IMG/VR virus record: IMGVR_UViG_3300028840_004348
Direction: 5' to 3' (one strand)
DNA: 34,639 bases
From: a virus
Made by a program: the position numbers and the translations under genes
In this document: positions 1,984 to 31,048 of the stretch, piece after piece
How positions within the stretch are numbered: position 1 is the first letter of the stretch
How the letters are laid out: every line of letters begins with the position of its first letter
Notes under the pieces: model-generated
Told to the model about the DNA's origin: nothing
Databases searched by the model: none
Seen by the model: the letters and a program-made list of their open reading frames with translations, nothing else

Positions 1984-4100
1984 CTGCTACCTCCCATATT
2001 CACACATAGACCCTCTCTCAATATACTAAAAGCCCACGGGTGTCAAGTTCGAAGTTCAGGGCCGACCTCAACTTCATCTTCCCGGCAACTTCGTCTCTCA
2101 AACGACTTCGTCTTTCAACGACTTCGTCTCTCAAACGACTTCGTCTCTCAGGGCCAAGATGGGACCCGATGCTTTTTGTCGAACCCTCTCCAACCAGTTT
2201 CCACTTGCCAGAATGCTGGTGGGTACATCCGAGGAGTTGGTGACTTCAGTTCGAGTTGGCCAGACTCGGTTCGGATCGGCAACATCGTTCAACATGAGAA
2301 CCTTGTCCAACCTTGGCCGAGGTTGCCGAAGTTCTCAAGTTGATGAAGTTGACTTCGTCACATCGGATGAACGTCGGCAATGATTGGCCAGGATGGGACC
2401 CAATTCTCCAGCTGGAGAAGTCGGCCAACTTCGTCTCCCAGAGCCAAGATGGGACCCGTACAAGTTCGGAAGATGGGACCCAATCGAAGTTCGGGAACTT
2501 GGTCGATATGGGACCCAAGAAAGCATAGAAGAAGCCTTCTTCGGGGGTTGGGGAAGTCGAAAAGGATCGTTCGAAGTTTTTGAGATGATAGGGGTTGCCA
2601 GGATTGTCCAATGATTATGTGGAGTTGGACGGTATTGGTAGGATTGGAATCCGATATATTATCTGGGGATGGGACCCAAATCTATGTGATCCAAAGCCCG
2701 GGATCGCGATCCGATAATCAGCTAGATCGACCCCCGGGGTCCAATAATCCCCAAGATCCGCCGAAATCAGCATAATCTTCGGCAAACTTAGGAAGATTAT
2801 CCAACTTCCAGCAAACTTCAGCCCAACTTCAGGACCAGCCGCCTTGTCGGATTGTCAACACTCAGGAAGATTCACCCTTGTCAGATTATCAATAGGCAAC
2901 ACGATGGATTATCGGATTGACTTGCCCAACACCTGGCCAACTTCAGCCCAGGTTGGCGAGATGAATGCGCCCATCTTGGCCAGGATTGGCCCGAACTCGG
3001 GAACCTCTACAACCTATCCCTGGAGCCCAAGCTCCTTAAGCACGGACAGGACTTCACGGAGCTGCTTCGAGGAGCCGCCCAGACCAGCTCTGCGCCCCGC
3101 TACCAGCCATCGCCAGCGCCTGCCGGCCTTCCAGATGTACACCATATCGAACCTCCTCGTCGAGCCTATCAATCCTTCCCAAGGCGGGTCAACTTTTCGG
3201 CTCTCCGTTGGTCGGAGACCACATCTTCCGAACTTCGACCAAGTTCGGGAAAGGTTGGTGAAGATGGATCACGATCCGTCTGACGAGAGTGTATCGATTC
3301 TTGATGGAATTGCGCAATCGTTAACGGTCGGGCAAGTTGGGTGTTGACGAATCGTCAACTCTATTTCGAATATCAATGCGGTTCGAGGATGGATTTTCGG
3401 ATTAGTTCAATGTTTGCGAGAGGTTGATGAAGTTCGGCTGGGGAAGTTGCCGAAGATTGTTCAAGGATCGCGGATTTTGGATCGGATTGGGACGGATCGC
3501 GATCCGCGCGATCCGCTGGTCTGGTCGATTCTCACCTATATACTGAGAGCCTACTTGACGGGTACTTGATGGCCGCTTGCTTGCCAATCCCGACCCAACC
3601 TCACCAATCTCCGTCCACTTCGTTCCAATCTCGGCAACTTGCTCCCTCTATCCAATCCTTGGCCACTCCGTTCCGAACTTGGCAACTTCGAACCAACCTC
3701 ATCTATCTGTCCAACTCCTTGGATGTACCCAGGCGAGTTTCTGGTGGGGGAAGTATCTACCGACTTCATCAAGCTTGCCGACTTACTCCAGCCGGCCAAT
3801 CCTTGTCCACTTCGTTCGAGTGAAGCAACTTGGTCAACTTCATCCCTTCGAGCTAACTTCATCTATCTGGCCAACTCGAACTGAAGTCACCAACTCCTCG
3901 GATATACCCAGGCGAGTTTGGCTGATGAGCTATGAGGAGAGGGGATGTACTTACCATGGAGAGAATCTGCCGCGCCATCCTCCTTTTCAACCACCTGATG
4001 TATCGGGTGCAATCTTAGCTTGGACCGACGAAGTCGTTAGAACTTCGAAGTTGAAGTTCAGAAGTTCGGGACTTCGAGGTTCAGCAAGTTCGGGCCGTCA
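1984..4100. repeat. 2.1-kb ORF-poor, repeat-dense locus (candidate replication origin, iteron field or genome-terminus region)
   Basis: There is no convincing CDS on either strand; the track ORFs here are low complexity. A 4x tandem 17-nt repeat lies at 2087-2150. Six copies of GATGGGACCC occur at 2158, 2392, 2448, 2472, 2517 and 2668. Perfect palindromes GGATCGCGATCC (2701-2712) and CGGATCGCGATCCG (3493-3506) are present. DnaA-box-like TTATCCAAC / GATTATC motifs occur at 2797-2915. Many AACTTCG / CCAACTTC short repeats run throughout. A roughly 50-nt direct repeat occurs at about 3697-3745 and 3848-3920. Confidence 0.6.
2087..2150. repeat. tandem array, 4 x roughly 17 nt ((A)ACGACTTCGTCTCTCA), abutting a GATGGGACCC box
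   Basis: Read directly: caacttcgtctctca / aacgacttcgtctttca / acgacttcgtctctcaa / acgacttcgtctctca, followed by gggccaagatgggaccc. Confidence 0.6.
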
Positions 4101-4279
4101 TACAGACGGTTGCTCCAGGGTACCGGTCACGAGGATCTGAGAGACGAAGTCGTGACTTCCCACATTCCTTCGACCGCTTCGTCCACGGGATCCTTGAACT
4201 TGGGTTTGCTCCAGCTCCGGGCCGCGAGCTGGGCTCGAAGATCAGCCAGGTCTGTATCTTCGTCGTGCTCGCCTACCAA

Positions 4280-4720
4280 TCACTCGTCCTCTTCATCTTC
4301 CCAATGTTCGTCGAGTCCTTCGTTCCAGATCTCCAGCTGACGCTCGGGCTTCAGAAGTTGGTTTTTCGAAAGAACCGCATACTCCTGCTTGAGACGCTCC
4401 TGGCTGCCCTGCTGACGGCGCGCGAGACGATAAGGGTAGAACTCCACCGGCAGCTCCGGCAGCCCGCAGAGGCGGCGGTGCAGCTGCTGGACGCCCCAGG
4501 AGGGCTCGTACCGGTCGCAGACGTGGAGAACTTCATCAATGGGATTCGGGAACTTCATCTTCTTGAGATCTTCGAACTTCTTGGAAGTATCGAGATCGTA
4601 GAAGCAGTATACCTCCTCCTCGAAGATCTCCTTGTCGCCGATGATGCCCATCCTCGTGTCGACCGCCCGGTGCTCGCAGGTGGCGCAGCATTCGGGGAAC
4701 GTCGGTCTCGGCTTGCCCAT
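4280..4720 (-). CDS. hypothetical Cys-rich protein with acidic C-terminus
   Basis: Track ORF 4280..4987 trimmed to ATG 4720 (MGKPRPTFPECCATCEHR...), which has an AGGAGGGG SD. The longer form would overlap the 4777..5196 gene. Confidence 0.45.
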   Translation of the reverse strand: MGKPRPTFPECCATCEHRAVDTRMGIIGDKEIFEEEVYCFYDLDTSKKFEDLKKMKFPNPIDEVLHVCDRYEPSWGVQQLHRRLCGLPELPVEFYPYRLARRQQGSQERLKQEYAVLSKNQLLKPERQLEIWNEGLDEHWEDEEDE

Positions 4721-5505: not shown

Positions 5506-5827
5506 GTTTCTCCATCTCGAAGGTGATCACGAGCGCACCCCTGTCGGAGATGGTCGCCCTCGTTTTCACTCGGATCACCGAGACCGCCAGCTTGAAGTGA
5601 AGCAGGCTCGGATCCTCCTCGTCGACCCAGACGGGACATTCGTAGTCCTCCAGCCCGAGATCGACCGTGGCGAACCAGGCCTCTCCGACCGGCGTCTCCT
5701 CCCAGGGCAATACCAGCGCGCCCCAGTCGGGACCGTATACCTTCCCGAGATCCGCCGGGTTCACCAGGATCGCGTCGCTCCCGGGCGTGTCAGGCCAGAG
5801 ATCCGGAATCAATTGATCGTTCGACAT
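5498..5827 (-). CDS. hypothetical acidic protein
   Basis: Track ORF. Its ATG sits 1 nt after the upstream TGA, with a GGAGAG SD. Confidence 0.5.
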   Translation of the reverse strand: MSNDQLIPDLWPDTPGSDAILVNPADLGKVYGPDWGALVLPWEETPVGEAWFATVDLGLEDYECPVWVDEEDPSLLHFKLAVSVIRVKTRATISDRGALVITFEMEKHD

Positions 5828-10020: not shown

Positions 10021-10050
10021 ACTATATAGAGGAAAGTTTCCCCTGTCAAG
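10021..10050 (-). promoter_or_regulatory. promoter TTGACA-17-TATAGT for the ATP-grasp gene
   Basis: Minus strand reads GCTTGACAGGGGAAACTTTCCTCTATATAGTCAGAGCGCAAGAGATG. Confidence 0.45.
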
Positions 10051-10072: not shown

Positions 10073-10456
10073 CTACTCCGGCTGCTTCACTTTCATCCGC
10101 TGGCTCACACTCTCGATGTGGTCGATGGTCTTGCCGGCATCGTTCAAGATGTAGGCTTCTCCGTCGAACACGATGTGTGTTTCCTGATTCCCCTTGCGGA
10201 CTTCGACTACTGTCGCACCGCTCCAGCTGCTCGGGCCGGAGATGAGTTCACCTCCACGACGACATTCCGAAGGCATCAACCAAACCCCATCTTCGGGTGG
10301 AACAGGAAGAATACCGTCCTCGGTCATCCGCTCCAAGTCCTCCGAACTGAGGTACGCCCAAATCTTGATGCTGTCACCTTCGCAATAGAACCAGGGCGTC
10401 TCTCGTGGACCTCCCCAACATCTGTACTTCGAGCTGGCGTCGATCTTGATGATCAT
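10073..10456 (-). CDS. hypothetical protein
   Basis: Track ORF 10073..10552 trimmed to ATG 10456, which has an AAAGGAGAAAGG SD. The longer form overlaps tRNA-Tyr. Confidence 0.5.
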   Translation of the reverse strand: MIIKIDASSKYRCWGGPRETPWFYCEGDSIKIWAYLSSEDLERMTEDGILPVPPEDGVWLMPSECRRGGELISGPSSWSGATVVEVRKGNQETHIVFDGEAYILNDAGKTIDHIESVSQRMKVKQPE

Positions 10457-10528
10457 GACCTTTCTCCTTTCTGCGGCCTTCTGGCTGACTATCTTGCTGT
10501 CGATCTGTCTGGGGATAATATACAGGAT

Positions 10529-10615
10529 TGGGAGATGGTGGAATCGAACCACTTGCCTCGTGGAGGAGCGGGTTTACAGCCCACCGCAGGCCCAGCCTGC
10601 CTTAGAGCACCTCCC
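10529..10615 (-). tRNA. tRNA-Tyr (anticodon GTA), class II with long variable arm
   Basis: Folded by eye. The acceptor stem is GGGAGGT/ATCTCCC and the anticodon loop is CUGUAAA. The T-loop is TTCGATT. The gene is 87 nt with discriminator A and no encoded CCA. Confidence 0.6.
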
Positions 10616-10617
10616 GT

Positions 10618-10706
10618 TGCACGGGGTGGGATTCGAACCCACACTGTCTCTTAAGCGTTGCCCTGGGGCCTGAACCCAGCGCCTCTACCAGTTGGGCTAC
10701 CCGTGC
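10618..10706 (-). tRNA. tRNA-Leu (anticodon CAG), class II
   Basis: The acceptor stem is GCACGGG/CCCGTGC and the D-stem is 3 bp with an 11-nt D-loop (CAACTGGTAGA). The anticodon loop is TTCAGGC. The long variable arm is present. The gene lies 2 nt (AC) upstream of the tRNA-Tyr 5' end. Confidence 0.55.
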
Positions 10707-10741
10707 GCTATCTAGATGCTAATTAGCGTCTAATTAGCATC

Positions 10742-10817
10742 TGGTGGACAGGGACGGAGTCGAACCGCCTACACCCGGAACTTCAATCCGGTGCTCTACC
10801 AGTTGAGCTACCTGTCC
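10742..10817 (-). tRNA. tRNA-Phe (anticodon GAA)
   Basis: A 76-nt cloverleaf with acceptor GGACAGG/CCTGTCC and D-stem GCTC/GAGC. The anticodon loop is TTGAAGT and the T-loop is TTCGACT. CCA is encoded. Coordinates were anchored on track ORF 10791. Confidence 0.65.
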
Positions 10818-10819
10818 GT

Positions 10820-10892
10820 TGCGCGTGGAGGGATTCGAACCCCAACATCCGGACCCTCAGTCCGGCGACTCTGCCAGTTGGCCTACACGCGC
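10820..10892 (-). tRNA. tRNA with anticodon GAG (Leu-decoding) but class-I length (73 nt, short variable loop)
   Basis: The acceptor stem is GCGCGTG/CACGCGC with discriminator A73, and the D-arm is Leu-type (3-bp stem, 11-nt loop CAACTGGCAGA). The anticodon stem is CCGGA/TCCGG and the loop is CTGAGGG. The T-loop is TTCGAAT. The isotype needs tRNAscan-SE confirmation. Confidence 0.45.
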
Positions 10893-10959
10893 GTTGTGTT
10901 TCACCTGCTGTCAGCAACCTCCGTTGTCGCTCACTTTCGAACGAATCTGATCAACCAAG

Positions 10960-11033
10960 TGCGACCGCCGGGAGTCGAACCCGGAACATCCTGCTTTTGA
11001 AACAGGCGACTCTGCCAGTTGGCCTACGGTCGC
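10960..11033 (-). tRNA. tRNA with anticodon CAA (Leu-decoding), class-I length (74 nt)
   Basis: The acceptor stem is GCGACCG/CGGTCGC with discriminator A, and the D-arm is identical to the GAG tRNA. The anticodon loop is TTCAAAA and the T-arm is CCGGG-TTCGACT-CCCGG. Coordinates were anchored on track ORF 10997. Confidence 0.45.
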
Positions 11034-11037
11034 TCGA

Positions 11038-11110
11038 TGCGTCCGCCAGGATTCGAACCTGGAACCCCCGGTGTTTAAAGCCGGTGCCTCTGCCGTTGAG
11101 CCACGGACGC
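11038..11110 (-). tRNA. tRNA with anticodon TAA (Leu-decoding), class-I length (73 nt)
   Basis: The acceptor stem is GCGTCCG/CGGACGC with discriminator A, and the D-arm is similar to the other two short Leu-type genes. The anticodon loop is TTTAAAC, with a C-A mismatch closing the stem. The T-arm is CCAGG-TTCGAAT-CCTGG. Confidence 0.4.
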
Positions 11111-11114
11111 TCGG

Positions 11115-11188
11115 CAGGAGAGCCAGGATTCGAACCTGGGTTTGAGGACTTGGAAACCTCCGTGCTGGACCGCTCGCACTACTCTCCC
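11115..11188 (-). tRNA. tRNA-Trp (anticodon CCA)
   Basis: The acceptor stem is GGGAGAG/CTCTCCT with discriminator G and the D-stem is GTGC/GCAC. The anticodon loop is TTCCAAG, with an imperfect anticodon stem. The T-arm is CCAGG-TTCGAAT-CCTGG. Confidence 0.5.
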
Positions 11189-11190
11189 GT

Positions 11191-11263
11191 GGTGACCGAC
11201 GAGACTTGAACTCGCAACGACCGGGGCCACATCCCGGCGCTCTACCAGTTGAGCTACGGCCAC
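11191..11263 (-). tRNA. tRNA-His (anticodon GTG), no encoded G(-1)
   Basis: The acceptor stem is GTGGCCG/CGGTCAC with discriminator C, and the anticodon loop is ATGTGGC. The T-loop is TTCAAGT. The nucleotide 5' of G1 is T, so G-1 is not templated. Confidence 0.55.
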
Positions 11264-11265
11264 AG

Positions 11266-11350
11266 CGGAGGACGCAGGGCTCGAACCTGCACCGGGATGA
11301 ACCGGACGACGCCTTAGCAGGGCGCTGCGATACCATTCTGCCAGTCCTCC
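11266..11350 (-). tRNA. tRNA-Ser (anticodon GCT), class II
   Basis: The acceptor stem is GGAGGAC/GTCCTCC with discriminator G, and the anticodon loop is CTGCTAA. The long variable arm is present. The T-arm is GCAGG-TTCGAGC-CCTGC. Confidence 0.55.
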
Positions 11351-11415
11351 ACATTAAAATTTTCCTCCATTTTCTTTAATAGTTCGGATCCTAATTAAAA
11401 CTTTCTTCAATACTG

Positions 11416-11488
11416 AGTCCCGAGCCGGAATCGAACCGGCGTCTGAGGATTTGCAGTCCCCCGCTTGAACCTGCTCAGCTACCGGGAC
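11416..11488 (-). tRNA. tRNA-Cys (anticodon GCA)
   Basis: The acceptor stem is GTCCCGG/TCGGGAC with discriminator U, which is typical for Cys. The anticodon loop is CTGCAAA and the T-arm is GCCGG-TTCGATT-CCGGC. Coordinates were anchored on track ORF 11465. Confidence 0.55.
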
Positions 11489-11491
11489 AAG

Positions 11492-11563
11492 CAGGGCCGG
11501 GCGGAGTCGAACCGCCGTACTCGGGTCCAAAGCCCGATGCTCTACACGTTGAGCTACGACCCC
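11492..11563 (-). tRNA. tRNA-Gln (anticodon TTG)
   Basis: The acceptor stem is GGGGTCG/CGGCCCT, with two G-U pairs, and the discriminator is G. The anticodon loop is CTTTGGA and the T-arm is GGCGG-TTCGACT-CCGCC. Confidence 0.5.
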
Positions 11564-11565
11564 GG

Positions 11566-11655
11566 AGGAGGGCGAGGGATTCGAACCCCCACGCCGGGAC
11601 AACGCCGACGACCGCGATTTTCGAGACCGCTCCAATACCGTTCTGGCAGCCCTCC
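11566..11655 (-). tRNA. tRNA-Ser (anticodon CGA), class II
   Basis: The acceptor stem is GGAGGGC/GCCCTCC. The anticodon arm, GCGGT-CTCGAAA-ATCGC, matches the canonical Ser(CGA) arm. The long variable arm is present. The discriminator reads U, which is atypical for Ser. Confidence 0.5.
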
Positions 11656-11700
11656 GATTGGTAAATCTTTCCATCACTTAACACTTCTTTACCGTTCGAG

Positions 11701-11787
11701 CGGAAGCGCCTGGACTCGAACCAGGACCACGGGAAACCGTGCTCTCGGCCTTCCAAGCCGGGGCCTTACCGTTGAGGCTACGCTTCC
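11701..11787 (-). tRNA. tRNA-Ser (anticodon GGA), class II
   Basis: The acceptor stem is GGAAGCG/CGCTTCC with discriminator G, and the anticodon loop is TTGGAAG. The long variable arm is present. The T-arm is CCTGG-TTCGAGT-CCAGG. Confidence 0.55.
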
Positions 11788-11800
11788 GAACTGGAAACGA

Positions 11801-11911
11801 TTAGCTTAGATAAAGCAGTGATTGATGCTGGATAAACGAGGAGAGACACCAGAGGCGGGGAGCCTTGGCGGTGGGGGCGATCATCTTTCCGATTCGCTTT
11901 CGACGTTTCAT
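11801..11911 (-). CDS. possible 36-aa basic micro-ORF inside the tRNA array (speculative)
   Basis: ATG at 11911 is preceded by GGAGAGACCG. It encodes MKRRKRIGKMIAPTAKAPRLWCLSSFIQHQSLLYLS within the 138-nt spacer between tRNA-Pro and tRNA-Ser(GGA). It is absent from the ORF track because it is too short. Confidence 0.15.
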   Translation of the reverse strand: MKRRKRIGKMIAPTAKAPRLWCLSSFIQHQSLLYLS

Positions 11912-11925
11912 CGGTCTCTCCTCGG

Positions 11926-11999
11926 TCCGGGCGAGAGGATTTGAACCTCCAACCTCTAGATCCCGAATCTAGCGTGCTACCAGATTGCACTACACCCGG
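11926..11999 (-). tRNA. tRNA-Pro (anticodon CGG)
   Basis: The acceptor stem has the C1-G72 pair characteristic of bacterial Pro, CCGGGTG/CGCCCGG, with discriminator A. The D-stem is GTGC/GCAC and the anticodon arm is CTAGA-TTCGGGA-TCTAG. The T-loop is TTCAAAT. Confidence 0.55.
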
Positions 12000-12104: not shown

Positions 12105-12133
12105 AATATAGAAGAAGCCCTCAAAGAGATCAA
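12105..12133 (-). promoter_or_regulatory. candidate tRNA-operon promoter TTGATC-17-TATATT (the -35 overlaps the GNAT stop codon)
   Basis: Minus strand reads GCTTGATCTCTTTGAGGGCTTCTTCTATATTTGAGA. This is followed by a GC hairpin, CTTCGCCGCGTAGCGGCGCGAAG. The tRNA-Pro 5' end is about 100 nt downstream. Confidence 0.35.
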
Positions 12134-12624: not shown

Positions 12625-13277
12625 CAGTCCTCCCAGACCGAATCGATGAGGTCGTAGATGAGATCGACCTGCTCGTCGGCGAAGTGCCAGCGGACATCGA
12701 TGTTGTCGTCGGCCCATTTCTTCGGATCGCCGTCTAGCTCCTCGGACATCGCGCACCAGTCGGCCACCATCTCCGCGATGTCGAGGTCGCCCATCCCGGT
12801 ACCGTCGATGACCTCGTCGGGAGCTGCATCCCGGTCGTCCTCGTCGACCACATCGAGCGTCTCCATCTGATGATACTCAGGGTGATGCTTGCTGTTCAGG
12901 ATGTGGTGCTGCGTGGCGACGTTGATCGCGTCCTCCATCCCCCCGGGCAGCTCGCACTCGATGCCCTCATCCTCGCACTTGTAGCGCCAGGTCAGCCAGA
13001 TGTACGGCTCCAGCTCGGGCTCTTCGAACTTGATCTGGTCGTGTTCTTCACCGCGCTCGATCAGGCCGTCGAAACCGTCCCAGGCATCCTCGATCTTCTT
13101 GCAGTACTTCTGCACGCGCTCGATGTGCTTGTTGGTCCGGTCGTAGAAGTGCTGTTCCATCTCGTCGGTGATCTGCTGAGCGACACGCCGAAGGCTGTCA
13201 AGCGCGCCCTGGACAGTCATGCCACTACGCATTCCGACCCGGATGATCGCGTTCCGGTCGAGTCCCCGAAGTCTCAT
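12624..13277 (-). CDS. hypothetical His-rich protein (possible HD-like metal-dependent hydrolase)
   Basis: Track ORF 12624..13334, which opens with TTG, trimmed to ATG 13277, which forms an ATGA overlap. Motifs seen are KHIERV, EEHDQIK (an HDxxK arrangement) and ATQHHILNSKHHPEYH. The N-terminus begins MRLRGLD. Confidence 0.4.
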   Translation of the reverse strand: MRLRGLDRNAIIRVGMRSGMTVQGALDSLRRVAQQITDEMEQHFYDRTNKHIERVQKYCKKIEDAWDGFDGLIERGEEHDQIKFEEPELEPYIWLTWRYKCEDEGIECELPGGMEDAINVATQHHILNSKHHPEYHQMETLDVVDEDDRDAAPDEVIDGTGMGDLDIAEMVADWCAMSEELDGDPKKWADDNIDVRWHFADEQVDLIYDLIDSVWED

Positions 13278-13561
13278 CCCTCTTTCACCGGAGGAAGGTC
13301 CCGCAGGACTTCCCACGCCTCGTTGAAGATCCAAGGAGTCTCATCGTATCGTCCATTCTGCTGCTTGAGTAGCACCACGTAACAGTGATCATCGATGGCG
13401 ATCTGAGCACGACCTCCGTACTCGTCTGCCAGCGTAGCTACGGGCTCGAACTCCGCGCCCTCCGGATCATCGTTGTCCCAGATAGCTCGATCATCGGTCT
13501 CCACTTGCACGTATCTCGCGATACGTCGAAGTGACTCTCGGTTGAGACCGTGGAGTCTCAC
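13274..13561 (-). CDS. hypothetical protein
   Basis: Track ORF with a GTG start that forms a GTGA overlap with the upstream stop. The N-terminus begins MRLHGLN. Confidence 0.45.
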   Translation of the reverse strand: MRLHGLNRESLRRIARYVQVETDDRAIWDNDDPEGAEFEPVATLADEYGGRAQIAIDDHCYVVLLKQQNGRYDETPWIFNEAWEVLRDLPPVKEG

Positions 13562-13989
13562 ATTCCGCCCCCGAACAGACGCTTCACGACGTCGAGCGGG
13601 AGCACCGTCTCCAACCCGAAGGTCGGGTCGTCCAGGTCGGCCTGGAAGAAGATACCCGGCTGGAACGGGATGAGACCGTGCCCCAAGATGATTGCGGCAA
13701 CCTTCTTCTGACGCTCCACGAGCGCTTCCAGCCAGCGCTCGGCTCCGTTGAAGATGATGAACTTGCCCTGCTCCTCCCAGACCTCTACGGGGGCCTGAGA
13801 ACCGGCTGAGCCTACTCCGTGAAGGATACTGTCGGCAGCTTCGTCGAGCGAATAGATGTCGACCGCCATGTCGGTCAACGGGATGTCGATGATCTTTGGA
13901 GGCGGCATCAGCTCCCCTACCAGACGTTCTCCCATCTTCTCCAAGATGAACTCGTCAACACTTCGGTATGGTCTTGGACGGTTTCTCAT
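13558..13989 (-). CDS. hypothetical protein (possible Rossmann-like fold)
   Basis: Track ORF with no SD. Its ATG lies 7 nt downstream of a TATATT hexamer within CCTGTATATT, so the mRNA is probably leaderless. Confidence 0.5.
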   Translation of the reverse strand: MRNRPRPYRSVDEFILEKMGERLVGELMPPPKIIDIPLTDMAVDIYSLDEAADSILHGVGSAGSQAPVEVWEEQGKFIIFNGAERWLEALVERQKKVAAIILGHGLIPFQPGIFFQADLDDPTFGLETVLPLDVVKRLFGGGM

Positions 13990-14022
13990 GAAGATAAATA
14001 TACAGGAAGGTGGGTCGGAAAT

Positions 14023-14304
14023 CTAAAGCTTGGGAGGTTCGGCCACCGATCGAGCCCAGGCACGGGCAGCGACATGTTGCTGTTCGACGCGCTCATGAAC
14101 GATGCGAGCGACTTCGTCGTAGGAGTCTCCGGCGTCGCCATCGACGCCTTCTGTGTAGACGACGTCCTTCTTGCGATGACCGTTCCGAATAGTCGCCCCC
14201 GGCCCGTAGGCAGCCACGACGGCGGCAGCGTCTTCCGGCAGCTTGCAGGCCGCAACGTACTCGCCTTCGGGGGTGTAGACTTTGAACTGCGGTGCTCCTG
14301 CCAT
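14023..14304 (-). CDS. hypothetical protein
   Basis: Track ORF with an AAGAGGG SD. The overlapping 13986..14255 ORF was rejected as low complexity. Confidence 0.45.
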   Translation of the reverse strand: MAGAPQFKVYTPEGEYVAACKLPEDAAAVVAAYGPGATIRNGHRKKDVVYTEGVDGDAGDSYDEVARIVHERVEQQHVAARAWARSVAEPPKL

Positions 14305-14874: not shown

Positions 14875-15080
14875 CAGTCGAGCCCCAACCGGTGCGCGAC
14901 CGCCTCGCACTCGTGACAAGTTATACCGTCCTTCAGCTGGCCGGCACGGTTGCGCTTGACACCTGCCAGCGTCGGACGACTGGGGTCCGCCGCCGATTCG
15001 CAGACGTGCTCCCAAAGGAGCGCGCTGAGAGGCTTCGCCCACTTGGGACGATTCTTCCACTTCGGAGCCTTCTTTGTCAT
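14874..15080 (-). CDS. small basic Cys/His protein
   Basis: Track ORF with an AGGAGGGCAATGAC SD. A conserved CTATATAG-type promoter motif lies upstream. Confidence 0.5.
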   Translation of the reverse strand: MTKKAPKWKNRPKWAKPLSALLWEHVCESAADPSRPTLAGVKRNRAGQLKDGITCHECEAVAHRLGLD

Positions 15081-15162
15081 GTCATTGCCCTCCTGTTGGT
15101 GTCATTCTTGATACTCTCTCTATATAGCACAGAGTCTACCCGATAAGCAAGCAAATTCTAGA

Positions 15163-15523: not shown

Positions 15524-15823
15524 CTACAGAGTCTCATCAACGACGTTGCCCAAGGTATCCAGGGCAATGTCCTTGATGAGTTCCTGAAGCTCTCGGAAAC
15601 GAGGATGAGAAGTGAACCGTTCCTCGGCTCGGGCCAAGGTAATGCCTCCTCTCGGAAGCTTGTTCCAGTCGACGTGGCTGAAGACCGAGGCAGCCTGCGC
15701 GGCAGCTTGCGGAAGCCCCCATTCAAGATCTGTCAAGACATCGTCCCAGTCGACCTCGAATCCTTCGCGCTCGATGCGCTCCTTCTCTTCCTGATAGCCG
15801 CCACCGAACGGATCACTCGACAT
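15524..15823 (-). CDS. hypothetical acidic protein
   Basis: Track ORF with a GGAGGAG SD. Confidence 0.5.
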   Translation of the reverse strand: MSSDPFGGGYQEEKERIEREGFEVDWDDVLTDLEWGLPQAAAQAASVFSHVDWNKLPRGGITLARAEERFTSHPRFRELQELIKDIALDTLGNVVDETL

Positions 15824-16367
15824 CGGGCTCCTCCATCACTTCATGGGGCTCTTCGTCAATGCGATGCATCTCGAACTCGACGCCGGCCTCGTTGCAGACT
15901 TCTTCGAAACCTTCGATCACCTTGTCAGTGTCCTCCCAGATCTCCACCCGTGTCGGCTGATGTTCCTCGATGAGTTGACGGAGCATCTCGGGCTTCCAGA
16001 CTTCTGAGCGAGAGCCCTCCGGGGCGAGCCGGATCTCATCGAAGTCGAGATCTTGTTGATCGAGCAGCTCGTTGATCCGATCTTCGAACTTCTCGAAGCG
16101 ACCAGTCACGAGCACGAACGCCGCGTCAGCTGCTTGCTCCGACTCGTGAGCGTCTCGAAGAACCTTTTGCACCCACCAGTCGGTCGTGGGCTCCTCGGGC
16201 ACCTGAGGCTCCTCCAGGCTCTTCTCGTTGGACCACCATCCTCGCTCGGGCCACCCTTTCGGTTTCTCGGGACTACGGAACAGAGTGCCGTCGAAGTCGT
16301 ACAGATGAAGCACCTTTGCTCCCGCGAGGCGGCGGAGTCCTTGCTTGGTAATGCCGAGAACGATCAT
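15813..16367 (-). CDS. HAD-superfamily phosphatase (T4 Pnkp-phosphatase-like / nucleotidase-like)
   Basis: Track ORF. It carries HAD motif I, LHLYDFDGTLF (the DxDGT signature), and a motif II-like FVLVTGR. It has no SD. Its ATG lies 7 nt after a TAGAAT hexamer, so it may be leaderless. Confidence 0.55.
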   Translation of the reverse strand: MIVLGITKQGLRRLAGAKVLHLYDFDGTLFRSPEKPKGWPERGWWSNEKSLEEPQVPEEPTTDWWVQKVLRDAHESEQAADAAFVLVTGRFEKFEDRINELLDQQDLDFDEIRLAPEGSRSEVWKPEMLRQLIEEHQPTRVEIWEDTDKVIEGFEEVCNEAGVEFEMHRIDEEPHEVMEEPDVE

Positions 16368-16407
16368 CCCGTTAATTCTACTCGATGTTCATTGGGTGCT
16401 ATAAAAA

Positions 16408-18375: not shown

Positions 18376-18533
18376 GTTCCTTCCCCGCACTCGATGACCA
18401 CCTTCTCTCCCTCCAATCTTACTCGTTCGATCTCGTAATACTGCCGTCCGATGGCAACGACGACCTCCTGATCCAGCTGCCCCTCCAGCTCCACGAGCAG
18501 GTCACACACCCGGTCGAGGCGCTCCTTATCCAT
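18372..18533 (-). CDS. small hypothetical protein (53 aa)
   Basis: Track ORF 18372..18632 trimmed to ATG 18533, which has a GGGAGG SD 6 nt upstream. Confidence 0.4.
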   Translation of the reverse strand: MDKERLDRVCDLLVELEGQLDQEVVVAIGRQYYEIERVRLEGEKVVIECGEGT

Positions 18534-18846
18534 CGACATCCTCCCAGTCGATGTCGTTGACGCAGCCGATCTCCCACGGAGCGATATCGAGATCGACCCC
18601 GTTGAAATAGACCGTATCAACCTCGCCATCACCGTTCAGATAGAGCGTGGTATCGATCTTTCGGATACCCCAGAAGTAAGAGGCCGTGATGAGGTACTGG
18701 AAGTCGAAAGAGGATTCAGGCTGCTCCATCGCCATCTGCGCCACAGCGCCCAAGCACGCGGACTCGACCGTGTAGAAGTTCGGCAAGATGAACACACCGT
18801 CCAAAAGATCGACCATCCGTGTCGGACCTTTGTTCGTCGGGAACAT
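18526..18846 (-). CDS. hypothetical protein
   Basis: Track ORF 18526..18981 trimmed to ATG 18846. That ATG lies 6 nt after TATATT within CCTGTATATT. It has no SD and is probably leaderless. Confidence 0.45.
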   Translation of the reverse strand: MFPTNKGPTRMVDLLDGVFILPNFYTVESACLGAVAQMAMEQPESSFDFQYLITASYFWGIRKIDTTLYLNGDGEVDTVYFNGVDLDIAPWEIGCVNDIDWEDVDG

Positions 18847-18878
18847 GCTCTGAATATACAGGAAGCGGATCGAGAAGC

Positions 18879-19229
18879 CTAGTTCTTCACCAACCTGAGA
18901 TGAGGTTTGGACTCGGGCCACTCCTTCGGAGGGGAAACAGGAGGCGGAGGGAGTGGAAACGACCACCACCAGCCGTCCCAATCCTTGTTGGGCTGAACTT
19001 CACCGGTCGCAGGATCGTGAGTTAACGTCACGTAGCCGGCGATGTTGCCGAACTTGTCGGCAACGAGGTAGCGCCCGATGCGTTTGGGGCGCTCTTGGCT
19101 CCAATGCCCGTTGAGATATCCAGTCCACGAGCAGGTGACGCCGTCCTGATACTGCTCGTCATCTTTCTCACGGACAACCTTGATGGGATCTTTGGGAACT
19201 GGGGCGTTCATCTCGTTTGGATTCTTCAT
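18879..19229 (-). CDS. hypothetical Trp/Pro-rich protein
   Basis: Track ORF with no SD. Its ATG lies 8 nt after the ATATTT -10 of a TTGACA-17-ATATTT promoter, so it is probably leaderless. Confidence 0.5.
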   Translation of the reverse strand: MKNPNEMNAPVPKDPIKVVREKDDEQYQDGVTCSWTGYLNGHWSQERPKRIGRYLVADKFGNIAGYVTLTHDPATGEVQPNKDWDGWWWSFPLPPPPVSPPKEWPESKPHLRLVKN

Positions 19230-19237
19230 AACCTGAT

Positions 19238-19266
19238 AAATATCATAGAATGAGGGAGGCTGTCAA
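19238..19266 (-). promoter_or_regulatory. sigma70-like promoter TTGACA-17-ATATTT, 8 nt upstream of a leaderless ATG
   Basis: Minus strand reads TTTCTATATTGACAGCCTCCCTCATTCTATGATATTTATCAGGTTATG. Confidence 0.45.
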
Positions 19267-19285
19267 TATAGAAAGAGTACTAGAG

Positions 19286-20011
19286 CTACTTTTTCAGCCG
19301 TCTCGCGATGCGTTCCAACTGGCCGTCCCCGAGACCTTTCTTGTACCGACCTTGGCGGTCGAACTCCAGGTTTTCGTCCTCTTCCTCCTCCAGCCATCCG
19401 AGCGCCTTGAGGGCTTCCCCGATCTGCTCTTCGGAGGGATAGGAGCCGCCGGTATCGGTCCGATAATCCAGCGCATCCTGGTTGTTCTCCCACAGCCAGC
19501 CGAAGACCTTCTCCTCCCAGTCGTCCGGGGCTGTGTCGGAGACCATTGGGGCTTCCATTCGGATGTTCTCCAAGGTCTCCTCGTATTCACGCCGGCTGAC
19601 GTCTTCATCACTCAGTACGGGGTAGTCCATGAGCGCGCCGGCCAGCTCCTCCAGTTTCTGGCCAACATCCGTCAGCTCGCCGCTCGGCTCCAGGACGCGG
19701 ACCGCGTACTCGCCGTTGTCGAGACGAACGAAGTCCTCGCTGGTGGGATCGATGCTGTTCAGCGTCTCGATGACCATCTCCATGTTCGACTCGTCCCGGT
19801 GGGACATCATGTCCTTGTAGCCCTGAATGGTGGCCCACTGGTCGGCCTCGTCCCCTTCGAGACCGAGGTAATGGAAGATCGAGACCGGGCTCGTCTCCGG
19901 CGCGTAGTAGAGGCCGGCATCGCTGAGCAGTCCCCGGAACTCCATGATCTTAGGTTGAAGATCGCCTCGGTAGGTCTGCCGGTCATCGTCTTCCCAAATG
20001 TATCGAGGCAT
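19286..20011 (-). CDS. hypothetical acidic protein
   Basis: Track ORF whose start overlaps the stop of the upstream gene. Confidence 0.5.
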   Translation of the reverse strand: MPRYIWEDDDRQTYRGDLQPKIMEFRGLLSDAGLYYAPETSPVSIFHYLGLEGDEADQWATIQGYKDMMSHRDESNMEMVIETLNSIDPTSEDFVRLDNGEYAVRVLEPSGELTDVGQKLEELAGALMDYPVLSDEDVSRREYEETLENIRMEAPMVSDTAPDDWEEKVFGWLWENNQDALDYRTDTGGSYPSEEQIGEALKALGWLEEEEDENLEFDRQGRYKKGLGDGQLERIARRLKK

Positions 20012-21036
20012 CAGATTATCCCCTTCTTCCTTGCCTCGGACAATACACGTTCGCCGAGGTCTCTCGGGTACAGCTCCCCGATGTTGAGGATCACGTCGAT
20101 GGTGGAGTAGCCGCCATCCACCAGCGCCCGGATGTCGTTCATGACATCCGTGTAGCCGCTCTCCCCGATCCGCAGCATGTCTTCCTCGCTGTCCCAGCCT
20201 GGTCCGTTCTCCAGCGGAGAACCCGATTGGCGATAGGGCTCCAGCTCGCCGATGTCCATCCGAAGCGCCCCTTCGTGCAGGTAGGGACGCAAGGGCCTCT
20301 CCTTGCGAGGAGGTTTATCATCGGGGTCGACCGGCCCGGACGGGCGCGGAGCGCTCGTCTGCGTGTCCTGAGAGTGCGTGAGCGGGTCGTAGCGGGGAGT
20401 TCTGGGTCCTCCGCTGCCTGGTGACCACTCCGGCGTCTCCGGCTCCTGAGGGCCGAAATGAGCGAAGTCAGGGGCACGTACCTGCTTGGTGGTCGGATCC
20501 GGAGGATCGGAGAAGCTCGGGTTGTCCTCGTCGACATAGCCGGCGATGATGCGAGAGCCCCCGTGAGCCTTGATGGCCTTCTCCTGCTGGAGAGCGTCTT
20601 CCTTGGTCTCGTGCCGTCCCAGCAGCTTGGAGCCGTCGCTCGTATAGAGCCCCCACTCCTTCCCGCTGCCGTCCTTGTCCTCTTCCCGCAGCTTCTTGAT
20701 CACGGCAGTCGTCGCCAGCCCCGTGGCCGGCTGGAGTGAGTAGTTCATCTCCAGCTCGGCGCTGTCCAGGGTCTCAACCCCTTCCGGAACAGCGGCTCCG
20801 GCTTGATCCGCAGGCATCAGGACCGTGTTGGTGGTGTCCGGGGCGTTCTCCACGACGAGGTACTCGTTGCCCTCCGGGCCGTACACCGACTGTCCTACCT
20901 GGAGCTGGCTCGGATCGAACGGCTGCTCTGTCTGGGAGTAGCGGCGCACCAGCTCGTGGAAGATGACTTCCGACCTCACCCGTCTCCTCCTGGTCGCTGC
21001 TCGCGACGGTTTCGCCATGAGTTCCATCTCCGCCAT
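20011..21036 (-). CDS. hypothetical protein (Pro/Gly-rich central region)
   Basis: Track ORF with no obvious SD. The choice among the M1, M4 and M7 starts is uncertain. Confidence 0.45.
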   Translation of the reverse strand: MAEMELMAKPSRAATRRRRVRSEVIFHELVRRYSQTEQPFDPSQLQVGQSVYGPEGNEYLVVENAPDTTNTVLMPADQAGAAVPEGVETLDSAELEMNYSLQPATGLATTAVIKKLREEDKDGSGKEWGLYTSDGSKLLGRHETKEDALQQEKAIKAHGGSRIIAGYVDEDNPSFSDPPDPTTKQVRAPDFAHFGPQEPETPEWSPGSGGPRTPRYDPLTHSQDTQTSAPRPSGPVDPDDKPPRKERPLRPYLHEGALRMDIGELEPYRQSGSPLENGPGWDSEEDMLRIGESGYTDVMNDIRALVDGGYSTIDVILNIGELYPRDLGERVLSEARKKGII

Positions 21037-21085
21037 TGTATGGCAGAAATCGTGGGAACTCTTAAATTCGCGTCATCCCTTTTGC

Positions 21086-21976: not shown

Positions 21977-22645
21977 TCAGATGCCGAAAGCATCCAGCTG
22001 GTCCTTCTTGCTGTTGTCGATCCAGTAGAACCGAGTGAAGCCTTTCCCGTCGTACTGCCGTCGCAGCGCGCGGTCGAGAACTTCTCCGACCCAGTAGAAC
22101 AGACAGTAGTCGGTGTAATCGGTACCCTTCCCGTCGAAGGAGAACCTCCGAACGAATTCGCCGATCTCGATGGGTGGACGCTCTCGGAACAGGCGCATCC
22201 GTTTGATCGAGCCGGCGAAACCCACGCGCAGCAGGAAGACTGCCACCCCGGTCGGATGCAGAATGCTCAAGGACTTCCGAACGAACTCCTCGGCCAGAGA
22301 GTACGGCGGGTTCGTAGCGATGATGTCCCATCCTCCGTGCTCACGGACTTCAGAAGGAGTGTACTGCTCCCAGGGGGCCGTCAAGAAGTCCGTCCGATAT
22401 CGGCGCTGCGGTTCCTCGGTGACTACCGACCAGTCGTCGATGATGTCGATACCTACCATCTCGCCGTCGTAGCCGATGTCGGCAGCCGACTTGATAAAGG
22501 GGTAGGTGAGGCCGCATCCGGGTTCGAGGATGTGGAGCTTGTTCTCGTAGGGATGGAAGTCAGTGGCCCGCAAGAAGGCCCACTGCGCGTAGCGATACGG
22601 GGTCGGATAGAAGTCCCGTCCGCCCCCAGATGGATTTCTAGGCAT
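21977..22645 (-). CDS. DNA methyltransferase (N6-adenine / N4-cytosine class)
   Basis: Track ORF 21977..22780 trimmed to ATG 22645, which has an AGGAGGAAACG SD and a CCCGTATATT promoter upstream. Motifs present are DFYPTP, the SAM-binding ILEPGCG, and the catalytic IIATNPPY. Confidence 0.65.
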   Translation of the reverse strand: MPRNPSGGGRDFYPTPYRYAQWAFLRATDFHPYENKLHILEPGCGLTYPFIKSAADIGYDGEMVGIDIIDDWSVVTEEPQRRYRTDFLTAPWEQYTPSEVREHGGWDIIATNPPYSLAEEFVRKSLSILHPTGVAVFLLRVGFAGSIKRMRLFRERPPIEIGEFVRRFSFDGKGTDYTDYCLFYWVGEVLDRALRRQYDGKGFTRFYWIDNSKKDQLDAFGI

Positions 22646-22793
22646 CGTTTCCTCCTGCACGCAATATACGGGATTGAAGATCGTTGACCCTGAAGAGAAG
22701 CTCACCGGACGGAGGGCAATCCGCATCCCAACTTCGGGTGACAAGTCCGAAGTTGGTGGTGAACCTCTCTTCGGGATCAACGATCCCGAGAGA

Positions 22794-24861: not shown

Positions 24862-24900
24862 TGTCATTGCCCTCCTTGTTCGAACGAATGATTCCGTCGA

Positions 24901-27264: not shown

Positions 27265-27294
27265 GTTGTCAGTGCCCTCCTTCATTGTCTCTAG

Positions 27295-27323
27295 ATATAT
27301 CACGAGAGTATGGGACCTGTCAA
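27295..27323 (-). promoter_or_regulatory. sigma70-like promoter TTGACA-17-ATATAT for the SNF2 operon, preceded by a T7 tract
   Basis: On the minus strand the sequence reads GGGCTTTTTTTATATTGACAGGTCCCATACTCTCGTGATATAT. It sits about 30 nt upstream of the SD and ATG at 27264. Confidence 0.5.
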
Positions 27324-27353
27324 TATAAAAAAAGCCCACCCTAAGAAGAGAAA

Positions 27354-28237: not shown

Positions 28238-28544
28238 CGCAGTCGCATTCTTCCGTTCGTGGCTTCCCGCAAGTCGCGCACCACCGGGCTTCACTATGGA
28301 CCTGTTCGATCCATGCCACGGTCTCGGCCCAGCTTTCGTTGCCCCGTTGATGGGGCCACGCCCTCTCTCCTTTCGCGAGCGCGTTCGTGATGGCAGTTAT
28401 TTCCTCGATGATTTCCTCGCGCTTCTTCTCCACATAGTAGTCGATGAGCTGTTCCGGCGTCGCGTCGTAGACGATAATGTCATCCACGATAGTAGAGAAG
28501 ATGGCGAACTTGCCGCTTGGCATCTTGACGATTCGATGACCCAT
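28224..28544 (-). CDS. hypothetical protein with C-terminal CxxC...CDC
   Basis: Track ORF 28224..28562 trimmed to ATG 28544, which forms a TGATG overlap with the HD gene stop. Confidence 0.4.
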   Translation of the reverse strand: MGHRIVKMPSGKFAIFSTIVDDIIVYDATPEQLIDYYVEKKREEIIEEITAITNALAKGERAWPHQRGNESWAETVAWIEQVHSEARWCATCGKPRTEECDCDARS

Positions 28545-29080
28545 CAGTCCGCCATCCCCCACAGGATGTCCAGGGCGCGCTTGTAACGCCGCTCGATGCT
28601 GCGCTCCTGCTCGGGCAGCCCCTCGATCCGGGAAAGGTTGTCCTGGAGATCAGCGAGCTTCACGCGCAGCGCGATGCGCGCCGCCTCCTGCATGTCTGAA
28701 TTCGGGTACACCGACTTGCTGGCTTCCTTGATCGACCGGATGTACTGGACATAGGTCGGTCGATGCACCCCGGCTTCCGCAGGCGGACGAGTGAGCAAAC
28801 GGACCGCCTCGACGACGCTGACGCTGAATCCTTCGATACGCAGGTCTTCCGGCGTGGCGTCAGTGTCTTCGCAGACATCGTGAAGCACCGCGACTTTCAT
28901 CGCATCCAGATCCGGCCCGAGAATCGGCAGTCCGACGCCTTGTCGATTCTCTTTCCAAGCTACCGCCACCATGACGCGGAGCGGATGCAGGATGTAGGGA
29001 TGCCCCTGCTTGTCGACTTGGCCTGCGTGAGTATTGGCGGCAAGCTCGATGGCTCGCTCGATTGATCCGTCCCGTCTCAT
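28544..29080 (-). CDS. HD-domain phosphohydrolase, SpoT/Mesh1-like (candidate (p)ppGpp or nucleotide pyrophosphohydrolase)
   Basis: Track ORF 28544..29146 trimmed to ATG 29080. The alternative start at 29146 has no SD and adds a hydrophobic junk N-terminus. Motifs present are AANTHAGQVDKQGHPYILHPLRV and AVLHDVCEDT, which follow the H...HD...D pattern of the RelA/SpoT hydrolase HD fold. Confidence 0.55.
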   Translation of the reverse strand: MRRDGSIERAIELAANTHAGQVDKQGHPYILHPLRVMVAVAWKENRQGVGLPILGPDLDAMKVAVLHDVCEDTDATPEDLRIEGFSVSVVEAVRLLTRPPAEAGVHRPTYVQYIRSIKEASKSVYPNSDMQEAARIALRVKLADLQDNLSRIEGLPEQERSIERRYKRALDILWGMAD

Positions 29081-29146
29081 TTTTTCATTTACCTTCTTCT
29101 TGAAGCTGTTCCATCCAACGATTAACCAGCGCACTCCAAACTTCAT

Positions 29147-30429: not shown

Positions 30430-30458
30430 TTCTTAACATATGCTGAGGGTTCTGTCAA
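30430..30458 (-). promoter_or_regulatory. sigma70-like promoter TTGACA-17-TAAGAA for the Mini-A gene
   Basis: Minus strand reads TTTTTATATTGACAGAACCCTCAGCATATGTTAAGAA, then AAGGAGAG and GTG. Confidence 0.45.
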
Positions 30459-30470
30459 TATAAAAAGATA

Positions 30471-31001
30471 CTACACCCTGGAAGTGCGCCGCCCAATCCG
30501 GTAGACGTGCGTGACCGAAATGCCAAACTTGGATGCCAACTCCTTACGAGGAACTCCCTTTTCGAATTGGAGGCGCAGCATAGCAACCTGCTGATCCGTG
30601 AGCTTCGATTGTGGATGATGCTCTCCTCGAAGTCCTGATCCCCTTCCGCGAACAAAGGGATTCAGGTGCGGTTGCGTGCGGGCACCATTACGGTCGCCAG
30701 AGGCGGTGCGCCCCTTTCGATCCCGATCAACGTTGTTATCACGTTGAGTACCCAGAAAAAGATGATCTACACGTACACATTTTGGATTATCGCATTGATG
30801 CAGAACATGAATACCCTTAGGAATCTTCCCGTGTTCCAGCATCCACGCGACCCGATGCGCATAGAGAGGGTGGGAACTTAGCTTCCGAGCTTGAAGCAGC
30901 CCATATCCGTTCCGGGTCACATAGCCCGTCCACTCCCAGCACTTCGAGGTCTTGACTACTTTGCGCCAAAACCGTTCAACAAATTCAACAGGAAACTCCA
31001 T
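30471..31001 (-). CDS. HNH endonuclease with C-terminal HTH (homing-endonuclease-like)
   Basis: Track ORF. It carries the HNH core, CWEWTGY...HRVAWMLEHGKIPKGIHVLHQCDNPKCVRVDHLFLGTQRDN, and a C-terminal HTH, LTDQQVAMLRLQFEKGVPRKELASKFGISVTHVYRI. It has no SD. Its ATG lies 5 nt after TATGTT in a TTGATA-17-TATGTT promoter. Confidence 0.65.
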   Translation of the reverse strand: MEFPVEFVERFWRKVVKTSKCWEWTGYVTRNGYGLLQARKLSSHPLYAHRVAWMLEHGKIPKGIHVLHQCDNPKCVRVDHLFLGTQRDNNVDRDRKGRTASGDRNGARTQPHLNPFVRGRGSGLRGEHHPQSKLTDQQVAMLRLQFEKGVPRKELASKFGISVTHVYRIGRRTSRV

Positions 31002-31048
31002 GCCTTAACATAGCACAAGCGATAGTAACTATCAATAACAGTGTTAGG

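Follow-up and report, generated by a model that had tools for sequence, protein, structure and literature searches.

Does a short repeat that lies directly in front of genes of a large phage act as a promoter, and are some of the mRNAs made from it leaderless? This question is raised by the 10-mer CC(T/C)GTATATT (CCYGTATATT), which occurs in IMG/VR record IMGVR_UViG_3300028840_004348, a stretch of 34,639 nt from an uncultured large phage (contigs up to 188,555 bp, ~188 kb) that is called the window below and was analysed at its full length. From comparison with related phages we consider it likely, if well short of certain, that CCYGTATATT represents a sigma-70-type promoter core and that for several genes the ATG coincides with the predicted transcript start, which would give leaderless mRNAs. 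The window (GC content ~58%) holds ~55 genes, and all called genes except one open reading frame (ORF) lie on the minus strand. Most genes have a strong Shine-Dalgarno (SD) sequence of the AGGAGG type or overlap the preceding gene, and nearly all leadered genes carry an SD of that type. Genes are named below by the position of their start codon, and the coordinates of the features are collected in Table 1.

Read on the plus strand, the motif is AATATACRGG, with exactly four matches in the window against 0.01 expected, a number reached in none of 100 shuffles. All four copies are intergenic and read CC(T/C)GTATATT on the minus, coding strand, as a first inspection of the sequence (the original prediction) had claimed; they also lie where it had placed them, apart from the first, which occupies 10517-10526 and not 'about 10516-10525'. 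CCYG is preceded by (A/T)T in all of them, and the hexamer is always TATATT, with the A at position 2 and the T at position 6 that fit a -10 element. The core GTATATT is found in five copies (0.57 expected). The relaxed motif (up to two mismatches) occurs at chance level (15 found, 17 expected), and 11 kb of extra flank contained no further copy of the 10-mer.

The spacers between hexamer and ATG were checked base by base. Genes 13989 and 18846 start 7 and 6 nt past TATATT without an SD, in agreement with the 6-7 nt of the original prediction, and two of its examples with another hexamer stand as well: the ATG of the HAD phosphatase gene 16367 lies 7 nt after the -10 hexamer TAGAAT, also without an SD, and that of the HNH endonuclease gene 31001 lies 5 nt after TATGTT. 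No SD-like sequence was found in the 20 nt upstream of the ATGs at 13989, 18846, 16367, 19229 and 31001; a complement of the anti-SD of at least 4 nt, located 3-12 nt upstream, was absent at 13989, 16367 and 31001, and none was visible at 18846. A TANNNT hexamer that ends 5-8 nt upstream is found for only 13 of all 925 ATGs of the window (1.4%), yet it is present at four confirmed gene starts. Where the gap to the preceding gene exceeds 10 nt, a gene has either a strong AGGAGG-type SD or, in place of an SD, a -10-like hexamer that precedes the ATG by 5-13 nt. This two-way split holds once three starts are corrected (29146 to the SD-led 29080, 21036 to 21027 and 13510 to an overlapping GTG).

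The evidence that carries the argument comes from orthologues in related phage contigs (L003, L004, L012, L013, L016 and L019-L021), which were obtained by protein searches and exact-contig look-ups and show 57-85% protein identity to the lineage of the window at a GC content of 47-62%. L003 is 81% identical in the 143-aa protein of gene 13989; L004, L016, L013 and L012 represent one phage type (76-85% identity); L019 and L020 show 67% identity in the methyltransferase (GC content 47.5%) and L021 shows 57% in a neighbouring protein (GC content 50.8%). The distance between hexamer and ATG is invariant within each orthologous set while the flanks diverge. Conservation of hexamer plus spacing extends over three lineages for gene 13989, over three plus one vestigial for gene 18846, and over two of three for the HAD promoter.

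The upstream region of gene 13989 reads TTTAGAtt..CCTG-TATATT-N7-ATG in the window and TTTAGAcc..gTGG-TATCTT-N7-ATG (i.e. TGGTATCTT-N7-ATG) in L003 and L004. TTTAGAC is thus kept in both relatives and, when read as TAGACC, provides a 4/6 match to TTGACA at a spacer of 18 nt. An in-frame stop is present 36 nt upstream of the gene, with no alternative in-frame start between this stop and the ATG. In codons 2-20, the three lineages vary at 3, 2 and 10 sites at codon positions 1, 2 and 3, respectively, and the first eight residues (MRNRPRPY) are identical across lineages despite seven synonymous changes; the third-position bias from codon 2 onwards shows that the region is coding from ATG 13989.

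For gene 18846 the window has CCTG-TATATT-N6-ATG, and L003, L016/L004 and L021 have cTGG-TATATT-N6-ATG (TGGTATATT-N6-ATG) within flanks that are otherwise divergent. L003 has ATA in place of the ATG at 18816 that the database gene caller chose as the start, and in both L003 and L021 the gene is preceded by an in-frame stop at a distance of 30-33 nt. An SD-preceded alternative start ahead of the conserved (I/V/L)P(S/N)FY motif (residues 21-25) was found in neither of these two: before the motif L021 lacks in-frame starts of any kind, and the sole one in L003 is a GTG without SD at codon 20. The proteins of the window and L021 align residue 1 to residue 1. The view of TATATT as a -10 hexamer is supported by orthologues that keep the hexamer at the same distance to the ATG, with TGG before it and a conserved -35-like element.

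The HAD promoter is conserved as catcgagTA(G/A)AATtaacg, with TAGAAT-N7-ATG in the window, TAAAAT-N7-ATG in L016/L004 and an SD-led leader of ~50 nt in L003. In L016 the promoter is followed first by an SNase-domain gene, in which just a few of the N-terminal codons are still the ancestral ones. The N-terminal GIT..G.RRL of the HAD protein is conserved in the L003 orthologue, where it is reached by translational coupling, which indicates that the HAD protein starts at ATG 16367. PHROG matches to the HNH protein extend from residue 6-8 onwards, and use of the next in-frame start, codon 28, would truncate the domain. On these sequence grounds the ATGs at 13989, 18846, 16367 and 31001 are confirmed as the true translation starts, and together with the conservation among orthologues they support the proposed set of leaderless transcripts.

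The geometry is that of a known signature, TANNNT at 6-7 bp from the start codon, and we therefore regard these sites as sigma-70-type promoters, four to six of which probably yield leaderless mRNAs. The minus-strand genes would be read by an RNA polymerase that recognises sigma-70/sigma-A-type promoters, with CCYGTATATT as the -16 to -7 segment of four of them, TATATT as the -10 element, and weak -35-like elements. Transcription by RNA polymerase preferentially begins at a purine located 7-8 bases past the end of the -10 element. Spacers of six and seven bases place the A of the ATG on the two preferred start positions, so that the predicted transcript would lack a leader and need leaderless initiation. 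Transcripts of genes 13989 and 18846, which lack an SD, would begin at the A of the AUG or one base before it, and would be translated through direct binding of the ribosome and initiator tRNA to the 5'-terminal AUG, as is known of leaderless translation. The same layout with other hexamers would serve genes 16367 and 31001 and may apply to 19229 and 21027, and copies 1 and 4 of the 10-mer would drive SD-led mRNAs with leaders of ~54 and ~11 nt. Both transcription start at these sites and use of the 5'-AUG are what we infer.

Other promoters of the same phages show which polymerase may be involved. The sequence TATATTGACAG, a -35 box plus an upstream A/T stretch, occurs in three exact copies in the window (19260-19270, 27317-27327 and 30452-30462, minus strand) against 0.12 expected, and is part of a consensus class, (T)TATATTGACAG-18 nt including TGn-TATnnn (-35 box TTGACA), that is conserved in L013, L016, L019 and L021. 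Further TTGACA/TTGCTT/TTGATC-17/18-TATAnT sites precede the R2K gene, the tRNA array and gene 15080. The presence of such consensus promoters in the same genomes points to the use of a sigma-70/sigma-A-type holoenzyme, most likely that of the host. Searches with Pfam, PHROGs and PDB sequences detected no gene for a sigma factor or an RNA polymerase in the window plus ~11 kb of flanks (~45 kb of ~188 kb), and the large unknown proteins near the window had no Pfam, PHROG or PDB match. A genome-collection scan made for host inference returned only two short fragments of metagenome-assembled genomes. Megablast among 50,697 phage records gave no close deposited relative, protein matches to deposited phages were all below 60% identity and taxonomically scattered, and IMG/VR scans with both leaderless-candidate proteins (genes 13989 and 18846) gave no match.

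Several observations weigh against the leaderless reading. The support for leaderless transcripts is comparative and at the level of sequence. The element kept across the family is (T)GGTAT(A/C)TT, a classical extended -10 with TG at -15/-14; the CCYG prefix belongs to this lineage only, and in the copies of the window (CCTG-TATATT or CCCG-TATATT) the TG or CG abuts the hexamer at -14/-13, without an intervening base. Because of this different register, the CCYG copies are not canonical extended -10 elements, although other promoters in the window do carry TGn (TGaTATTTA, TGaTATATC and TGcTATGTT). At the -35 position, TAGATT (copy 2) and TAGGCT (copy 3), each 17 nt from the hexamer, match TTGACA at 3/6 positions, and copies 1 and 4 reach 3/6 at best, so that as plain sigma-70 promoters the four copies look weak. 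In a pooled count, ATGs located 5-8 nt after TGNTANNNT are modestly enriched (9 of 54 sites, ~3 expected) and the orthologous sites are not independent, which is why the argument rests on orthologue conservation. The genes upstream of 13989 and 18846 are co-oriented at gaps of only 32-33 nt and are not followed by recognisable terminators, so that read-through transcripts in which these ATGs are internal must also exist. Finally, two of the wider candidates (19229 and 21027) have plausible alternative starts.

This arrangement of the upstream genes also suggests another explanation, in which the SD-less ATGs belong to internal cistrons of polycistronic transcripts, reached by re-initiation 32-33 nt downstream or through an A/U-rich landing site, while UAUAUU acts at the RNA level or is incidental. 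Terminator-like hairpins were not found between the genes, many genes of the window are coupled by overlaps of 1-14 nt, several of these being SD-less, and the element itself is A/U-rich. An RNA enhancer would nevertheless not predict exact conservation of T-A-n-n-n-T, nor a TGG before the hexamer and, at promoter spacing, the -35-like TTTAGA, nor a constant distance of 6 or 7 nt to the ATG across lineages, and the 6-7 nt in front of the ATG (cagagc, caagtc, agctgc, cacatgt) are neither conserved nor A/U-rich. A role as translation signal is also excluded for catcgagTAGAATtaacg (hexamer plus flank) in L003, where an SD-led leader of ~50 nt follows it. We consider initiation at internal cistrons unlikely as the explanation of the element; read-through transcripts of this kind may coexist with the promoter.

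The unusual prefix could alternatively mean that CCYGTATATT forms a separate class read with a phage-specified factor (a sigma factor, a sigma-appropriating activator or an RNA polymerase), with CCYG as its determinant, for instance in the timing of middle genes. The four copies have neither a good -35 nor a TG in the right place and may therefore need such help. In all three promoters that can be compared, the same two positions changed in parallel, the relatives having (T/C)GG before the hexamer and the window CTG, CTG and CCG; the promoters with a consensus -35 of the same genome keep TGn, and the (A/T)T before CCYG is common to the four copies. The ~45 kb reached of the 188 kb yielded no sigma or RNA polymerase gene, there are just four copies and none in the extra flank, and the hexamer fits an ordinary -10, as does its distance to the ATG. 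We judge a phage-specified factor improbable, and even if it were true the element would still be a promoter and the leaderless inference would stand. A bolder version, to which we give rather little credence, is that the -35-poor class swapped the ancestral TGG for CCYG at every comparable copy to fit a lineage-specific factor contacting positions -16 to -13, and that, given the ATGs at +1 and the mini-ORFs of the relatives described below, initiation at a 5'-AUG is a systematic expression device. It is highly improbable that the element serves a DNA-binding repressor as operator, or is a non-promoter site of another kind, and that the proximity of the ATG is a coincidence. A short, exactly repeated, intergenic sequence in a window that encodes helix-turn-helix (HTH) proteins (a Crp-like protein of 151 aa at 1173-1628 and the HNH protein with its HTH tail) would fit, but no inverted (dyad) or direct repeat symmetry is present around any copy, the relatives conserve just the part that matches a -10 and do not keep CCY, and the fixed distance to the ATG in orthologues would go unexplained.

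The mechanism that is proposed here, leaderless initiation from a promoter next to the start codon, is not new. An ORF directly preceded by a -10 element is a well-documented pattern in Actinobacteria and Deinococcus-Thermus, and phages too have known examples of leaderless transcripts. Leaderless genes are marked by a TANNNT whose first T precedes the start codon by ~12 bp, and in both phyla they account for more than 20% of the genes (Zheng et al. 2011, PMC3160421); TA-led leaderless genes of these phyla have been described further (de Groot et al. 2014, PMC4007540; Life Sci Alliance 2025, PMC12340547). The -10 motif of D. radiodurans precedes the ORF by ~6-7 bp and works as a normal -10 (PMC12340547). 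The genes described here resemble the TA-led genes in having TANNNT 6-7 bp before the ATG and no SD within a genome that also contains SD-led genes, and in a hexamer that works like an ordinary -10 and may be accompanied by a -35. They differ in that they are candidates predicted in a phage genome and not genes of a bacterial chromosome, and in that only ~4-6 of the ~55 genes in the window show the layout, compared to 20-47% of the genes in those phyla. With regard to the extended -10 (TGnTATAAT), the relatives' TGGTAT(A/C)TT is alike in its TG at -15/-14, and a weak -35 is typical of that class, whereas the copies of the window have TG/CG at -14/-13 with CC before it.

Among phages, 5' ends located 6 nt downstream of TANNNT have been found in the Thermus Lalka phages. 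Middle and late transcripts of the Thermus phage phiYS40 are reportedly leaderless as well. The cI gene of lambda, transcribed from P_RM, is given as an example of a leaderless phage transcript (Shean & Gottesman 1992, as cited in PMC12340547). The transcripts predicted here would likewise start at the AUG from a promoter of the host polymerase; cI is a single regulatory gene, whereas here scattered genes of unknown or accessory function are concerned, and there is no sequence relationship. In the giant phage phiKZ, differential RNA sequencing revealed no leaderless transcripts, and typical 5' untranslated regions are 31-40 nt long (PMC8244752). The early promoters of phiKZ, which are AT-rich, extended -10-like and used by the virion RNA polymerase, are similar in that a short AT-rich core is repeated before genes of a large phage; the present phage is different in having canonical TTGACA -35 boxes, and no phiKZ-like polymerase genes were seen in the ~45 kb reached.

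Such junctions matter for annotation, for gene callers mis-start these genes (18846 as 18816, 21027 as 21036) and also overextended two SD-led genes. Leaderless translation is efficient in some bacterial groups only. ATGs that are held under selection at a predicted transcript start point towards hosts with robust leaderless translation, and the small set of precisely defined promoter-ATG junctions can be tested in vitro.

Table 1. Promoter elements and genes at the junctions discussed, in order of position in the window (leaders and leaderless starts are predicted)
Feature	Position	Strand	Details
R2K ATP-grasp gene promoter	10021-10049	-	TTGACA-17-TATAGT; 13 nt before SD-less ATG 10007
Gene after copy 1	10073-10456	-	127 aa; SD AAGGAG; predicted leader ~54 nt
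10-mer copy 1	10517-10526	-	CCTGTATATT; begins 2 nt past tRNA-Tyr, the last tRNA of the array; 60 nt from TATATT to ATG 10456
143-aa gene (13989)	13558-13989	-	Function unknown; TATATT-tatcttc(7)-ATG; strong leaderless candidate
10-mer copy 2	13997-14006	-	CCTGTATATT; TATATT at 13997-14002, then tatcttc (7 nt) and ATG 13989
-35-like TAGATT	14020-14025	-	17 nt upstream of TATATT; within conserved TTTAGA(T/C)
HAD-family phosphatase gene (16367)	15813-16367	-	HAD_SAK_1, 184 aa, Pfam E = 2.4e-17; TAGAAT-taacggg(7)-ATG; leaderless candidate
-10 TAGAAT	16375-16380	-	7 nt before ATG 16367; TTTATA 19 nt upstream (16400-16405)
106-aa gene (18846)	18526-18846	-	TATATT-cagagc(6)-ATG; strong leaderless candidate; database gene caller chose ATG 18816
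10-mer copy 3	18853-18862	-	CCTGTATATT; then cagagc (6 nt) and ATG 18846
116-aa gene (19229)	18879-19229	-	TATTTA-tcaggtt(7)-ATG; ambiguous leaderless candidate
Promoter of 19229	19237-19266	-	TTGACA-18 nt (ending TGa)-TATTTA; consensus-type; 7 nt before ATG 19229
338-aa gene (21027)	20011-21027	-	Possible leaderless start; called by gene callers from 21036 (341 aa)
-10-like TACAAT	21035-21040	-	Overlaps annotated ATG 21036; 7 nt before ATG 21027; absent from the original prediction
Gene after copy 4	21977-22645	-	222 aa, DNA methyltransferase-like; SD AGGAGG at 22651-22656
10-mer copy 4	22663-22672	-	CCCGTATATT; 17 nt (gcgtgc-AGGAGG-aaacg) from TATATT to ATG 22645
HNH endonuclease gene (31001)	30471-31001	-	176 aa, Pfam HNH_3 E = 1.7e-16; TATGTT-aaggc(5)-ATG; leaderless candidate, this lineage only
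HNH promoter	31007-31035	-	TTGATA-17 nt-TATGTT; TGc directly before the -10; 5 nt before ATG 31001

The 10-mer is not tied to leaderlessness: only two of its four copies abut an ATG, and the other leaderless candidates have other hexamers. For copies 1 and 4 strong SDs and leaders of 40-50 nt had been expected; the SDs (AAGGAG and AGGAGG) are there, and the predicted leaders are ~54 and ~11 nt, the latter because the predicted transcript start of copy 4 is the SD itself. The gene after copy 4 matches the PHROG DNA methyltransferase family (E = 5.9e-30), and homologues carry PF07669. The sites orthologous to copy 4 read CCGGTATATT in L016 and TTGGTATATT in L019. Next to copy 1 lies an array of 14 tRNA genes (10529-11999, minus strand) with a promoter of its own, TTGATC-17-TATATT at 12105-12133.

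Directly upstream of copy 4 we found a conserved structured element of ~115 nt (window 22673-22790, minus strand; L016 372-490; L019 2240-2372), consisting of a long stem and a three-way junction, with a minimum free energy of -69.1 kcal/mol (z = -8.6 against shuffles). Among the three phages, 11 of the 45 consensus pairs show compensatory double changes, and the loop hairpin CGGATTGCCCTCCG is invariant; Rfam contained no real match to the element. Its 3' arm spans the -35 position of the copy-4 promoter. Possible roles are those of a terminator or 3'-end stabiliser for the upstream operon or of a small RNA; it might also form a cruciform in the DNA.

Gene 19229 had also been listed as leaderless. 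The distance of 7 nt from TATTTA and the lack of an SD hold; the start is ambiguous because it is Met7 (ATG 19211) that aligns with the first residue of four orthologues. The same promoter is found in L016, L019 and L021, but there with an SD-led leader of ~40 nt. A gene of 244-261 aa that lies in the relatives between this promoter and the 116-aa gene is missing from the window (window 19230-19290 compared to L016 4380-5283, L003 2466-3200 and L021 13964-14740), and its absence brings the promoter to 7 nt from an ATG in frame with the 116-aa gene. By eye, ATG 19229 resembles an ATG near the start of the 5' leader of the relatives.

In relatives, a mini-ORF of 9-11 codons starts at an ATG located 6-8 nt past the -10, and its stop overlaps the main start or sits just beyond it (L016 ~4450-4500 and 5662-5690; L021 ~13925-13966, TATAAGattagctATG...AGCAAATGA). 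This suggests leaderless upstream ORFs that are coupled to the main gene.

Upstream of gene 21027, TACAAT-N7-ATGGAA, encoding ME(F/L)..K.SR, is kept in the window, L003, L016 and L019. Each lineage also has an in-frame SD and start codon 16-31 codons downstream, so that the gene may be leaderless, SD-led or both; the start of the 341-aa gene (20011-21036) may lie at 21027. The R2K gene is predicted from its promoter to be near-leaderless, with a leader of at most 7 nt. Its start at ATG 10007 was confirmed by the N-terminus MFYVIQEN, which is conserved in distant homologues (a scan of JGI metagenomes that returned only distant AT-rich phages).

Three further candidates were set aside. ATG 29146 was ruled out as a leaderless start, for Met23 of the HD protein (ATG 29080) aligns to residue 1 of the L013 orthologue. 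For ATG 27285, 8 nt after TATATC, the SNF2 helicase more likely starts from ATG 27264, behind the ribosome-binding cassette AGGAGGGCAnnGACA; the two ATGs are in frame (27262-27285). The lack of an SD at GTG 13510 is accounted for by an in-frame GTG further upstream, at 13561, which overlaps the stop of the preceding gene. The gene-caller starts thus appear to be wrong for the HD phosphohydrolase (28544-29146, start at 29080) and the 106-aa gene, and probably for the 78-aa gene (13274-13561, start at GTG 13561 and not 13510) and the SNF2 helicase (24901-27285, start at 27264). The cassette AGGAGGGCAnnGACA, followed after 0-3 nt by an ATG, is found three times on the minus strand of the window (15080-15094, 24862-24876 and 27267-27281; 0.07 expected) and is also present in L004 and L013.

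Elsewhere in the window, an iteron-like non-coding region at 2088-2677 may be a replication origin. It contains six exact copies of GGGTCCCAT in a single orientation (2159-2677) and a 17-nt tandem repeat of 3.8 units (2088-2150), and lies inside a 2.3-kb gap of low GC content (1984-4279) that also holds the sole opposite-strand ORF (2844-3347). Downstream of it is the 151-aa HTH protein (1173-1628), with weak matches to Crp and to replication-initiator/DnaD-like proteins. A one-mismatch copy of the iteron, AGGTCCCAT, is located in the promoter spacer of the SNF2 helicase (27310-27318). Beyond the window, ~1.7-3.9 kb past its start on the same phage contig (L009 12344-14542), we found an ORF of 732 aa with a Cas12f1-like/TnpB nuclease domain (PF07282).

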